In this document: piece by piece, positions 5,583-39,257 of the stretch | How positions within the stretch are numbered: the stretch's first letter is position 1 | Layout: each line of letters opens with the position of its first letter | Assembly (NCBI RefSeq): GCF_006345805.1 | Contig: NC_042999.1 | Span: forward strand, 124,434,001-124,498,000 | DNA from: Octopus sinensis | Taxonomy: Eukaryota | Length of the DNA: 64,000 nucleotides | Direction: 5' to 3' | Translations under genes and position numbers: made by a program | The notes under the pieces: model-generated | What the model saw: only the letters and a program-made list of their open reading frames with translations | The model's database searches: none | Told to the model about the DNA's origin: nothing

Positions 5583-6249
5583 AATAAATTTATAATCAGG
5601 GTAGAAGATTTGTAGGTTTTAAGGCAGTTGTCTAAAGATATTCCTCTTATCACTAATGTAGACAGAGATGTTCACTCCTGCGGAACAACTAAACTCTATG
5701 ACTCTACAGGATTTTTCTTTCCAATCTCAAATAACTTTGTCAGATCCGTAATATTTGCACTTGGTAGAAGTTTTGAAGGGAACATCCCACCAATATTCCT
5801 TGTACTAATATGTATGTATGTATGTATGTATGGATGGATGGATGGATGGATGCTTGTATGTATCATGAGGTAATATTTATCCCCACAGTTGCATACTGGG
5901 GTCAATCTAATCGACTGGCCCCCTCCTCCAAAATTTCAGGCCTTGTACCTAGAGTAGAAAAGAATATTTATCCCCACTTAAATGTGGATGTTCTGTTAGA
6001 ACATACTAGACTGCAGTAGATACCATGAGTCTTATCTTCCCACATTTTGCACCCAAAGCCAATATGAGAGTTTCTCTCATGGTATATACCGCAGTATAGT
6101 TTGTTCTAACAGAACAATATTTAAATGGGGATAAATATTACCACTCAATATTAATACTGACTCTGTTGCTTAAATATATTTTTTAACAAGCTCACTAGCC
6201 ATGGCACTGTCTTTCTATTTACAGCTGGCAGGTAGATATCTGTATTTGG

Positions 6250-11736: not shown

Positions 11737-13930
11737 TTATGGTTGCCTAACAAAACACCACATGCCTACAAGTCATTCATAAATTTTCACAATATTCGTT
11801 TCAACTTGCAAAACAGCTACAATTAACAGTTGTTGTAATTGTTGTTTAGCCATAGGTCAACTCTGATCAAGTAGACCTACAATCAAAATCACTCCAGTCA
11901 TGACAATCCATATTTTTGCAGGTTTTGGGGTCTTTGAAGACATCCAATGTACCCTTTCAAGACATAAGGCATTATCTGAGGGTAATTTGGCTGCTATAAC
12001 TAGAAGGTTTAGAAATACTGTGTAGAAATTTCCTGGGAAAGTTTATGAGTTACTTATAAAACATTCCCTAAACACCATACAGCAGATGTTATGTTTACAA
12101 TGTGAGGTAATGTCTAAGTTGCCAGTATTTTAACATAACAAATATCCTGCCTCAGGAATATACTCTAAGCAGCACCATTATAAAATCTCATTAATATATA
12201 AGATGTCTAAAAATAAAAATACAAACTAAGCATCTTGCGACTGATAAATATTTGGTTTTTCACCAAATTTGATCTCAAAGCTGATTCCTTAGTCTTACAA
12301 TAAATGCATGCAAGTCTCATTATTTTCCAGTCAATACTGCAACGGAACAGTTGTTGTGTCAGGATATTAGATTTCATCTGCCACATGTTTATTTTAGACT
12401 TTAAATGTGTGCAATTTAACTCTTTATATTGTCTCGCTCACATGCTAGAGTGACAACAATATAGAGTAACACCAAAAGCCTGACTAGTGTAAACATCTTA
12501 ATAGATTCCTTCTCATTCATGCTACAATGATCAATACTCATAGTACTACATGGAAATTCAAATATATATATGAGGTTTAAACCTTATCTGCTGAACTTGG
12601 AGTCATTGAGATTAGAAAACAACACAAGTAATCATAGCAATGCTACCTTCAATTTTCTTGTGTGATCTGATCAGTAAGATGTTTAAATGACAAAGAATTC
12701 ATTGATCAGTTTTCTACTGAGAAGCAAACATAATCCTTCATCTTAAATATCTGTTTTATGTGCTAGGGCTTAAAATTAACTTCTCAATCAAGTGCAACTA
12801 ATGAGCCAGAAGTGAATTGATGGAAGCGTATACAAGAAAACCAATAGATTATAAATGTCATAGGCTGCTTTGTAGCAACAAGTACAAGGAAATTGGTAAA
12901 TGGTACAAGTAGGATAAAATGAAAAAATTTAGATTCGTGGTGAAATGAAATATTTTGTATTCCTAGCAAAAATATTTCTATTAATGTGGCAGCAATATTA
13001 TTCGTAAACACTTTCTATTCCTTACTTGATAGAGTAAAATGATAAATTTTGCTTTGAGGAATTTACTAAAAATTGGTGAACTAAAAACAACAGGCTTTAG
13101 CAGGAATCAAATGAGAATGCAGTTAATAGATTTTATCCAATATCCTTAGCACCAGAGGGCTGTGGATTTTAGTGTTTTGAGGTTTTGGTGGGTTTTTGGG
13201 GGTGGGGTGGAAATTGTGTATATTTACTACTACAAAATGGGGACCAAAGTCTAAGCATATTTTCTGGTTACATTTCCTAATGCATCTAATTAGTTTATCC
13301 ATCATTGTCAATGATGACCAAAGACACCATATGAAACGCTTACTTTCAAAACCAGATATATGCATTGGAATTTGTATTTTGGGGATTTTTTGCTTGATTT
13401 TAAACTTTTCCCAACACTTTCAAGAATAGTCTCCTTTGCCAAACTGCTAAGCTATGGAGACATAAACACACCAACACCAGTTGTCAAGTGATGGTGGAGG
13501 GACAAACACAGACACAGACACATAAATTTTCTGTTTCTAGTGTTTCTCTTATTTAGAAAATATTTCAGATTTTAGTTATTTCTGGATTTCAAATTTTGAA
13601 TTTTGGAATTTCAGAAAAGAATTATAAACAAAATAATTGTGTTATCTTCCAAGAAATGAATTTTGAATGGAGTATTTTGTTGAACACTTGACTCCCACTC
13701 ACAAAATAAGTTTCTAATTCTTCTCACAACACAACAATATACACTAGTAACACAAGCAAATTTCCATGAATGACCTCTGCATTAATAACATGCAGTTAAG
13801 TGGCACTGAGCAAAAAAAGCACCACTAGGAGATTTCCCCCAGTTATTACTGCAAACTGTCAATGTTTATTCACTCAAATGTTAATATCTAACATTCGCTT
13901 AGGATCTTGTTGATGTTGCTAGAACTATTT

Positions 13931-13970
13931 TTCACTGATGAGGTCTAATAAGACTGAAACATGTCCAGAT
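13931..13970 (+). ncRNA. Minimal type I hammerhead motif (core intact, stem I poor)
   Basis: CTGATGA-ggtct-aata-agact-GAAA-catg-TC, with palindromic stem III ACATGT and a GUC site. The flanks do not pair well as stem I. Confidence 0.55.
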
Positions 13971-16220: not shown

Positions 16221-16381
16221 CAGGAGTGGCTGTGTGGTAAGTAGCTTACTAACCAACCACATGGTTTCGGGCTCAGTCCCACTGCATGGCATCTTTGGCA
16301 AGCGTCTTCTGCTATAGCCCCGGGCTGACCAATGCCTTGTGAGTGGATTTGGTAGACAGAAACTGAAAGAAGCTTGTCGTA

Positions 16382-23432: not shown

Positions 23433-23454
23433 ATATTTTATGTATATATAGATG

Positions 23455-23800
23455 CTGGCATGGCTGTATGATAAGAAGCTTGCTTCCCAATGAAATTCTT
23501 TTGGGTTCAGTCTCGCTACATGGCACCTTCGGCAAGTGCCATCTACTATAGCTTTGGGTTGACCAAAGCTTTGTAAATGGATTTCACAGGAGGAAACTGA
23601 AAGAAACCTGTCTTGTATGTGTGTGTGTGTCTTCATGCCTGTGTTTGTCCCCCCCCACCTGATAACTGGTGTTGGTGTGTTTATATCCCTGTAACTTGGC
23701 AGTTTGGCAAAAGAGACTGATAGAATAAATACCAGGCTTAACAAAAAACATAAGTACTGAGGTTGATTCATTTGACTAAAATTCTTCAAAGCTGTGCCCC
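23455..23800 (+). mobile_element. SINE family A, diverged
   Basis: Matches the family A consensus. Confidence 0.85.
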
Positions 23801-24072
23801 AGGTCAGTGCCTGGAGTCAAACTCGGAATCTTGGGGTTAGTAGCCTGCGCTCTTAACCACTATGCCATATGCCCACAGGCATATGGCATAGTGACCTGAA
23901 CAACAACAACAACAACAACAACACTGAAAAATACCTTAGGAATGAGAACCCAGGTTCGAAATTTCCCCAAGACACCTGATGAAGGCTGGAGAGTATATCA
24001 GCCAAAACGTTATGTTAACAACAAACAAAATGAGGACAAATATCCGTCAATTGTAAATAATATAAATAATGT
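23800..24072 (+). mobile_element. tRNA-headed, hammerhead-tailed non-autonomous element, copy 1 (head inverted/fold-back)
   Basis: tRNA-like head on - (23800-23874), hairpin cactatgccatatgcc/ggcatatggcatagtg, (AAC)n linker, HHR motif at 23971-24016. Homologous to 37850-38145. Confidence 0.75.
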
Positions 24073-37783: not shown

Positions 37784-37849
37784 AACTTGTTAATGTCTTT
37801 TGATTTTTCAGTTCTATATTTAAGAGATGAGGAATTATGTACATCATTT

Positions 37850-37997
37850 ACGCTATTTACATTTGACGGATATTTGTCCTCATCTTGTTTGTTGTTAACA
37901 TAATGTTTCAGCCAATATATCCTCCAGCCTTCATCAGGTGTCTTGGGGAAATTTCAAACCTGGCTCCTCATTCCTAAGGTATTTTTCGATGTTGTTG

Positions 37998-38032
<35 letters not shown>

Positions 38033-38145
38033 TTTATTATCATCATTATTATTATTATTATTCAAGTCACTGCCTGGAACTGAACTCAGAACCTTGGGAT
38101 TAGTATCCCGCACTCTTAACCACTATGCCATATGCCCACGGGCAT
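37850..38145 (-). mobile_element. tRNA-headed, hammerhead-tailed non-autonomous element, copy 2
   Basis: On the - strand: atgcccgtgggcat hairpin, A box tggcatagtgg, B-box-like gagttcagttcc, (AAT)n/(AAC)n linker, then gacac-CTGATGA-a-ggctgg-aggatata-ttggct-GAAA-cat-t-atgtt (37897-37942). Confidence 0.75.
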
Positions 38146-39257
38146 TTGTAGAACTGTTAAAGCCTTGCTGTATCTTTTCTGACTATTTATATTCTGACAA
38201 CACCTGTGATGACACAGGTGTCAAACTGTATTAACCCAAGTTGGTGGCGTTTCTTTTGGATAAACATTGGTATCATGGAGAGAGGAAAGAAAACTTCTAT
38301 GCATAAACAACTGTTAATTTTCTTCAAAAAATCTTGCCCAAATCTGCACACACATGTGCCAATATATGGCTAACCTTAATCAATGGAGCTTCCTTTTGTA
38401 AAAATTTATGCAACATATTTTAACTGTATTTCCACTTTCACATACTTCAAATCATCTCTATTCTTTGCATCATCAGATTAACAAATGTTCTCTTGAGACT
38501 TCATTATCAAATGCAAGCGTTTACCATGAAATTTTTGTTGAAGAATACCTAAGTAATTGCCCTTGCTTTTTTTTTTCTCCTTTGTTACAAGACACTGTCT
38601 TATTAGCTTGATCCAGACAGGTTCGCCTAACTGGGTATTAATATCCAGAACAATACTGCAAAGCCTTTTGTCCAGTTCTTTATGAATTCTACTAATCCAT
38701 CATTCTGGAACAGCACTTGATTTTACCAACCCTGGAAAGTTCAATAAAATCAAGCACCAGTCCAGTTGACTTTGGTGGTATTAGAAATCAGAACATAAAT
38801 AGCTGTGACAAATATAGCAAGTACTTAAACAAGTCTACCAGTCTATTGTCAATCAAATCCCCGAACTGTCAAAAGCAGAGATGTGGTGTTCGAAGAATGT
38901 CGTCAATACAGTACACACTGGACAACCAGCTAAAAGAAAGTTGGCTTATATCCTGTTACTAAGACTGTATGGTGTCCATGACCAAGTCATTTAACTCTCA
39001 GTAGCCTAATCCTCTTAACTGTAAAACAAGGAACATAGAGTGGTACAGTTCAGTGGTGCAAACAGTGGGAGCACTGTAAAATTCACAAATGTTTTGTGAT
39101 CAAGCAAAGTTTGAGTTCAATTTCTCTATGTAGAGAGGAATAAGCTCCACCAAACTGACTTGTCTACATACACTAGAAGGAAAAGTGTTTTCCATAGTGG
39201 CCTTAGTACACAATGGGTCATAAGATACTTATATGAGCAGGTATTTTTCTTGTCAAT

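Follow-up and report, generated by a model that had tools for sequence, protein, structure and literature searches.

A tRNA-derived head, an (AAT)n linker and a hammerhead motif form the terminal repeat of a Penelope-like element in Octopus sinensis

An abundant repeat family of Octopus sinensis, in which a tRNA-like head is joined by an (AAT)n linker to a hammerhead motif, is almost certainly the terminal repeat (pLTR) of an autonomous Penelope-like element (PLE). It is not a separate SINE, because the unit of head, linker and hammerhead is the own terminal repeat of an autonomous element of the Penelope/Poseidon type. The explanation we favor, with a probability of roughly 0.6, is that the RNA of this element would start at a captured promoter of the RNA polymerase III (Pol III) type, and that the short copies would derive from an internal start of reverse transcription in the 5' pLTR. 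Two copies are present in the window, i.e. the stretch of 64,000 nucleotides analyzed here (contig NC_042999.1, positions 124,434,001 to 124,498,000). Their parts are:

38130..38147, minus strand: palindromic 5' junction, consisting of a 12-nt imperfect palindrome at -7 to +5 and a few inverted bases, with the loop flipped (from the sequence, ORF-attached copies and genome-wide contexts)
38062..38137, minus strand: tRNA-derived head, 76 nt (colinear with the genome's tRNA-Arg(ACG), the best of six isotypes sampled)
38130-38120 and 38085-38076, minus strand: A box, intact, and B box, decayed in this copy
37991..38061, minus strand: (AAT/AAC)n linker (from the sequence)
37809..37971, minus strand: 5' end of a Penelope-like ORF, with the ATG at 37971-37969, in frame through the hammerhead to the 3' end of the insertion (from its continuation in the ORF of locus L352 and a protein alignment)
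37897..37942, minus strand: minimal type I hammerhead motif, with core and GAAA kept and the stem III palindrome and the 3' arm of stem II mutated (from the sequence, the family columns and the descriptor in PMC4209133)
37809..37840, minus strand: optional 3' extension of about 32-35 nt, the Penelope "tail", putatively marking a distal start of reverse transcription
23800..23874, minus strand: second copy, full tRNA-derived head, inverted; the remainder of this arm is missing where another SINE abuts
23877..23899, plus strand: second copy, sense head remnant, +1 to +17 joined to +71 to +76 (from the sequence)
23900..23925, plus strand: second copy, (AAC)n linker (from the sequence)
23926..24072, plus strand: second copy, pre-ORF bases, ATG at 23942 and a short 3' end without the extension
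23971-24016, plus strand: second copy, hammerhead motif, with GAAA changed to AAAA

A preliminary description of the window had recognized the two copies as homologous, and their tails are indeed 89% identical over 147 nt and their heads 84% over 86 nt. Its reading of the hammerhead letters and of both lesions (GAAA lost at 24004, ACGT changed in the 38-kb copy) was also correct. The two copies are not alike in build, as it had assumed, because the full head of the 23.8-kb copy is inverted relative to the tail and only a remnant lies in sense, with +17 joined to +71 via a 4-nt microhomology. The 5' fold-back hairpin ascribed to the family is mostly an inversion junction; its native part is the 12-nt imperfect palindrome, upstream of which the full element, as seen in ORF-attached copies, continues into a 29-nt spacer and then the ORF. 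The 38-kb copy, previously taken to end at 37850, really ends at 37809, 41 nt further, after running through the Penelope "tail" extension. The 23.8-kb copy is joined at a short microhomology to a tRNA-headed SINE with an internal (TA/TG) microsatellite that lacks its 3' end there (23447-23800). This SINE is abundant and also occurs in the window at 16227, 28711, 34414 and 54100 as well as in many other places. The window holds another minimal hammerhead motif at 13925-13970 (plus strand), unrelated to this family and also with a stem III palindrome; it is probably the solo pLTR of another Penelope-like family.

The identity of the parent element emerged from several loci with common sequence upstream of the head; this sequence codes for the C-terminal end of a Penelope-like protein. 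The preliminary description had called for a search for an autonomous PLE that shares the tail, and this element exists. In 29 of the 30 loci found by the 3' part of the ORF the head follows the ORF stop after the 29-nt spacer, and in 28 the tail is present as well (four of the 30 entries represent one duplicated insertion and two represent another). The layout is ORF stop, 29-nt spacer, tRNA-like head, (AAT)n, ATG, hammerhead and ORF N-terminus. A frame that runs through the ribozyme starts with the ATG, which lies about 30 nt ahead of the hammerhead core; the supposed tail consists of the first ~55 codons of the ORF. In L352 the N-terminal frame continues into the ORF, and a related protein of 861 aa can be aligned with it at 44% over 87 aa (E 6e-18). 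The complete ORF comprises about 835-840 codons, i.e. a body of 776 codons (column majority of five long copies, with one terminal stop) plus 65 N-terminal codons, and the element is about 2.9 kb long. Three loci (L245, L345, L349) carry the pLTR, hammerhead and ORF start, at both ends of the ORF. The idea of a separate SINE/retrozyme hybrid with a borrowed tail is not supported by these loci, since the whole unit is the autonomous element's pLTR.

A reverse transcriptase domain was identified in L217 (PF00078, E 1.5e-9). The GIY-YIG-like CCHH region is visible as a motif in the translations and conserved in the alignment; two of two C-terminal fragments gave no match to PF01541. The closest protein match of the family ORF is an uncharacterized Octopus sinensis protein (77%), and a PDB search returned weak reverse transcriptase matches only. 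The CX2-5CxxC linker that precedes the endonuclease in the genome's other PLE families is absent from the family translations. Absence of this Neptune-type linker is a criterion for the Penelope/Poseidon clade (PMC8557442) and thus points to that clade. No intact copy was found among the loci, and copies differ from the column majority at 7-8% of columns. Other PLE families recovered by a genome-wide Pfam GIY-YIG scan, Neptune-type by their linker motif, were considered as parents and rejected, as they do not share the tail. One of the Neptune-type families (L151, L167, L168) is abundant; its ORFs are long and intact (781-883 aa), a further ORF lies upstream, and its repetitive 3' region gave no canonical hammerhead match. 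The closest relative outside octopus, at 57% identity, is the P0154 cluster (ENA contigs of up to 55 kb), which has a hammerhead-like peptide at its N-terminus.

The family is real and abundant. Exact 18-20-mers of the head number 5,870 genome-wide and those of the tail, just before the hammerhead, 6,894, against 0 for the reversed controls, so the family is not a product of chance. In 60 evenly spaced 10-kb stretches (600 kb of the 2.72-Gb genome) it was present in five, with head and tail in all five; one sampled stretch holds a weak 35-nt tail match. This sample corresponds to ~23,000 insertions (roughly 20,000; 95% range 7,000-53,000). Head and tail are linked as the preliminary description had proposed: a sense tail lies within 300 nt in 23 of 29 loci found by the head, and a sense head piece is present in 15 of 30 tail-anchored arms, the others being truncated in the linker or inverted. 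Short copies exceed ORF-attached copies by ~5:1 according to the exact-word counts. A pattern for tails without an AAT linker was also tried as a way to the parent and retrieved only inversion junctions and other microsatellites; the parent came from the shared upstream sequence instead. The linker itself is a target for other (AAT)n-tailed retroelements, because insertions of such elements sit in it at five loci (L036, L044, L051, L058, L023).

The hammerhead is of the Penelope-type minimal form with a palindromic stem III, as previously noted. The majority letters of 241 arms show stem I, CUGAUGA, one extra base, a 6-bp stem II, GAAA and the ACGU palindrome, and the G-C closing pair of minimal type I hammerheads is present. 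These features fit those listed for the minimal hammerheads of metazoan PLE pLTRs (PMC4209133). Core, GAAA and palindrome are all intact in 55 of 222 arms, and no Rfam model scored above threshold on the family hammerhead. Non-majority letters amount to 5.3% in the hammerhead core columns and 6.3% in neighboring non-CpG columns; the core is no better conserved among copies, which is expected because the copies are dead. Column 51 is the one variable position of the hammerhead core, and minor letters there are nearly confined to one arm. Folding of three pieces as single strands gave no useful information (z 0.5, -0.8 and -1.8; the L038 piece was off position). Ribozyme processing of the copies, another part of the preliminary description, is not supported, because the arms pass through the cleavage site uncut and their starts are not concentrated there: the 10-nt bin containing the site receives only five of the 286 arm starts, which is like the neighboring bins. 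The 3' ends of the insertions lie 55-90 nt beyond the cleavage site.

The geometry of the insertions agrees with the earlier proposal that the copies were made by a Penelope-like reverse transcriptase, as head-to-head arms, a one-sided extension and short target duplications are the marks of Penelope. In 75 head-to-head pairs the ~35-nt extension is found on exactly one arm in 69 (37 expected, P 6e-15), on none in four and on both in two. A target duplication of 11-19 nt, mostly 12-14 nt, accompanies 53 of the 75 pairs (permuted mean 1.2). Inverted arms, a one-sided tail and short target site duplications are known for PLEs (PMC3846280). The extension of the octopus family is as long as the distance between two internal start sites of reverse transcription in the Anolis element, whose RNA is copied uncut and which nicks both strands (PMC11167929). 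Minor non-CpG letters common to the two arms of an insertion number 35, against a permuted mean of 11.1 (never more than 24 in 2,000). This points to one template or source locus for both arms, or to conversion afterwards. Double priming by one complex fits the combination of a single start site per arm, the 12-14-nt duplication and the arm-shared variants. Minor letters at tail column 122 are common to both arms; those at columns 51, 63 and 100 occur almost only on one arm and may be recurrent reverse transcription errors or mutation hot spots. A fold-back of a single cDNA was rejected as the sole source of inverted arms, given loci in which a short complete arm is paired with a long truncated one (L040, L049, L050, L052, L056). 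Among the 92 listed loci there are no head-to-tail arrays beyond a few interrupted copies.

That the head is tRNA-derived and carries A and B boxes, as first suggested, is well supported. Aligned with the genome's tRNA-Arg(ACG), 49 natural heads are colinear at a mean identity of 61%, and one tested head outscored all 1,000 shuffles. When 28 tRNA sequences of six isotypes were scored against the head, Arg(ACG) was best (62) and Thr(AGT) second (51). By this comparison Arg(ACG) is a tentative source isotype, because six isotypes only were compared and the Arg genes were found by a head-based pattern. The genome holds a tandem array of ~90 tRNA-Arg(ACG) genes with ~206-bp spacing (G000:C2:3121912-3162240; L172-L182). 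The majority letters of both boxes fit the generally known consensus, several cloverleaf pairs are broken (pairing judged by eye), and both boxes are intact in 13 of 30 ungapped natural heads. ARAGORN reported no tRNA in the window and none in 37 of 37 loci, and Rfam gave no tRNA or hammerhead match at the two copies among the 150 of 256 window matches listed. A tRNA-derived SINE ending in (AAT)n, inserted into the pLTR, is the probable source of the head. By standard annotation such copies would be named tRNA-SINEs or tRNA pseudogenes.

Two further observations bear on how the element may be transcribed. The first is a step in copy number at the head. Exact-word counts are flat upstream (934 at -195, 989 at -39 to -20, 888 at -26 to -6), rise 5.5-fold at the 5' edge of the head (4,919 at +5 to +25 versus 888), continue at 5,870 (+32 to +49), 6,894 (pre-hammerhead) and 6,461 (extension), and fall to 74 in the ORF just beyond the extension. 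Of 30 head-anchored arms, 23 start between about -7 and +24, none from there to -77 and seven deeper (three alignments that ran into inverted sequence were corrected by hand). Four 5'-complete ORF copies among the 30 loci (L320, L324, L333, L343) likewise begin at the head, none with the upstream spacer. In a further one, L327, ORF-3' sequence lies upstream in direct orientation, which fits tandem read-through.

The second observation concerns runs of T. Runs of four or more T (T4) terminate Pol III transcripts. The column majority of the ORF body has none in 2,329 nt, versus 3.1-4.2 expected (P 0.013-0.021), and 27 natural copies (three duplicates dropped; the copies are not independent) have 17 versus 85 expected. 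The depletion counts as one family-level observation with P about 0.01-0.02. In 80 related ORFs from metagenomes there are 346 such runs versus 252 expected; they are also absent from four of 61 related ORF stretches of at least 1 kb. Four ORFs of the genome's other Penelope families have 9, 13, 10 and 3 runs at similar T content. A/B boxes between ORF end and hammerhead were found in none of the 80 relatives, many of which have little downstream sequence, and two of the 80 have box-like matches further downstream. Copies that mostly begin at the head and a coding strand without T4 runs make it likely that the element is read by Pol III, and the Pol III drive assumed in the preliminary description is better supported than it was there.

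In the scenario we favor, the RNA would start a few bases before the head and run into the ORF; a defined RNA start at the head is likely in itself. The RT/endonuclease would nick both target strands ~12-14 nt apart, and reverse transcription would begin at two internal sites of the RNA, one for each strand, as it does in vitro for the Anolis element. A start at the 5' pLTR would bring the cDNA to the 5' end of the RNA after ~300 nt and yield a SINE-like copy, comparable to an integrated strong-stop cDNA. A start at the 3' pLTR would yield longer, randomly truncated copies that bear ORF sequence, and the two cDNAs would join via the small palindrome or other microhomology. The hammerhead would leave the copied RNA uncut, and any activity it has is predicted to require a dimer or the help of a protein; cutting would separate the start codon from the ORF. 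Whether Pol III also reads the full coding RNA is doubtful on this evidence. It would make the element an autonomous protein-coding retrotransposon switched to Pol III, with one ~2.9-kb terminator-free and terminally redundant RNA as both mRNA and template, a rather improbable extension of the scenario. Translation of an uncapped Pol III RNA is left unexplained by it. The step itself could have another origin, as a palindrome or GC-rich head that stops or trims cDNAs on a longer RNA would look alike.

Three alternatives have to be weighed against this scenario. It is possible, at clearly less than even odds, that the functions are split, with short or medium Pol III RNAs from the head serving as templates only and the protein coming from a separate capped Pol II or read-through RNA. 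This division accounts for the step at the head, overlaps with our explanation as to the short copies and needs no translation of uncapped RNA; Kojima has also argued that, where LTR elements are Pol III-driven, their autonomous partners must depend on Pol II (PMC10886601). The T4 depletion, however, spans the whole ORF and would not be needed by a short template, although ORF-bearing cDNAs also need a full-length one.

Somewhat unlikely, in our judgment, is an ordinary Penelope element transcribed by Pol II or by read-through, in which the tRNA-like insert is carried along as a passenger and, through its fold and its palindrome, provides a strong stop and a site for joining, such that 5' truncations pile up at the head. 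Of the first 100 of 2,009 contexts with an intact palindrome, 47 are head-to-head junctions (counted by eye), palindromes are known from inverted pLTR junctions (PMC3846280), known pLTR promoters are Pol II-like (PMC8557442, PMC3846280), and the direct-orientation sequence upstream of L327 is in line with read-through. Yet many arms joined to non-palindromic partners or to flanking sequence also start at -7 to +15, the word counts are flat for 170 nt upstream of the head, and a passenger leaves both the kept A/B boxes and the ORF-wide T4 depletion unexplained. The model of the preliminary description, an independent SINE/retrozyme hybrid that borrowed a hammerhead tail, is processed by the ribozyme and is mobilized in trans, is very improbable: it could draw on the ~5:1 excess of short copies, on the linkage of head and tail in all five family loci of the 600-kb sample and on a possible second generation of transcription from short copies, but the identical unit is the autonomous element's own pLTR, head-to-tail arrays are missing from the 92 loci beyond the few interrupted copies, and arm starts are not piled at the cleavage site, with 3' ends well beyond it.

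RNA-seq data of a related organism (about 6% of each run) cover both strands equally, with a depth that tracks copy number and no pile-up of starts or ends. Of the reads, 76-89% run into unrelated flank, and the 5' body of the ORF reaches only 1-7-fold depth. These reads are passive read-through, and libraries of that type cannot show short Pol III RNA.

Most traits of the family have counterparts in known systems. Published PLEs of the Penelope/Poseidon type (Poseidon_Ac of Anolis, PMC11167929; Adineta Pen, PMC3846280; PMC8557442) likewise have one ORF with a reverse transcriptase and, at its C-terminus, a GIY-YIG-like domain (in the octopus family a motif-level candidate), a hammerhead and ORF start in the pLTR, an inverted arm, a junction palindrome, a short target site duplication, a 30-40-nt tail on one arm, two internal start sites of reverse transcription and an uncut RNA template. 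The octopus element differs from them in that its stop codon and ATG are separated by a tRNA-derived segment with A/B boxes and by the (AAT)n linker, and in that its coding strand has no T4 runs; the published pLTR promoters are of the TATA/Inr or intron-linked Pol II type, in contrast to the tRNA-derived segment here. The hammerhead motif, known here from sequence, shows no difference from the minimal hammerheads of metazoan PLE pLTRs as described in PMC4209133.

TRIMp3 elements (Helenus, Ajax, Cassandra; PMC10886601) also have a small-RNA-derived, presumed Pol III promoter in the terminal repeat, for which a SINE insertion has been proposed. They are short non-autonomous LTR elements with PBS and PPT, defined by true LTRs and the lack of an ORF, whereas the segment described here sits in the pLTR of a protein-coding element of non-LTR type, with an ORF and PLE-type ends. 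Schistosoma Sm-alpha and Sj-alpha (via PMC6765202 and PMC2770079) combine a tRNA-related Pol III promoter with a type I hammerhead in an abundant repeat; according to these sources they are tandem, ribozyme-released and non-coding, with no autonomous parent named there, while the octopus family inserts head-to-head without being cut and belongs to a coding element. Animal non-LTR retrozymes (PMC7761336; bioRxiv 10.64898/2026.07.22.740005) share type I hammerhead repeats akin to PLE pLTRs, but they form tandem arrays delimited by hammerheads, whereas the octopus copies do not stand in tandem and end without regard to the cleavage site. With tRNA-derived SINEs the family has in common the 5' A/B-box head and copies that start at the head, but here the whole unit is the partner's pLTR rather than an independent element related to it by a 3' tail alone.

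In the literature listings and abstracts searched, no paper described a PLE pLTR whose promoter is tRNA-derived or of the Pol III type. The sections of the O. vulgaris repeat annotation accessible in PMC13282606 do not mention a hammerhead, and the family could be listed under some name in Repbase, Dfam or the O. vulgaris library of that study. New here are the 5' copy-number step at the head, the T4 depletion of the ORF and the A/B boxes between ORF end and hammerhead.

The mode of transcription and the cause of inverted insertions with a one-sided tail are open questions in the PLE field, and the family offers a testable case, i.e. a pLTR whose start is defined and tRNA-derived, together with dated products in the thousands. 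Pol III would be an unusual polymerase for a jumping gene that codes for protein. Should it read the whole ORF, this would contradict the expectation, stated for TRIMp3, that autonomous partners use Pol II (PMC10886601), and would point to cap-independent translation of a retrotransposon. A switch to Pol III, if true, would remove the need for a tandem neighbor and spin off tens of thousands of SINE-like "strong-stop" copies, and would thus provide a route for SINE-like families to arise inside a Penelope element.
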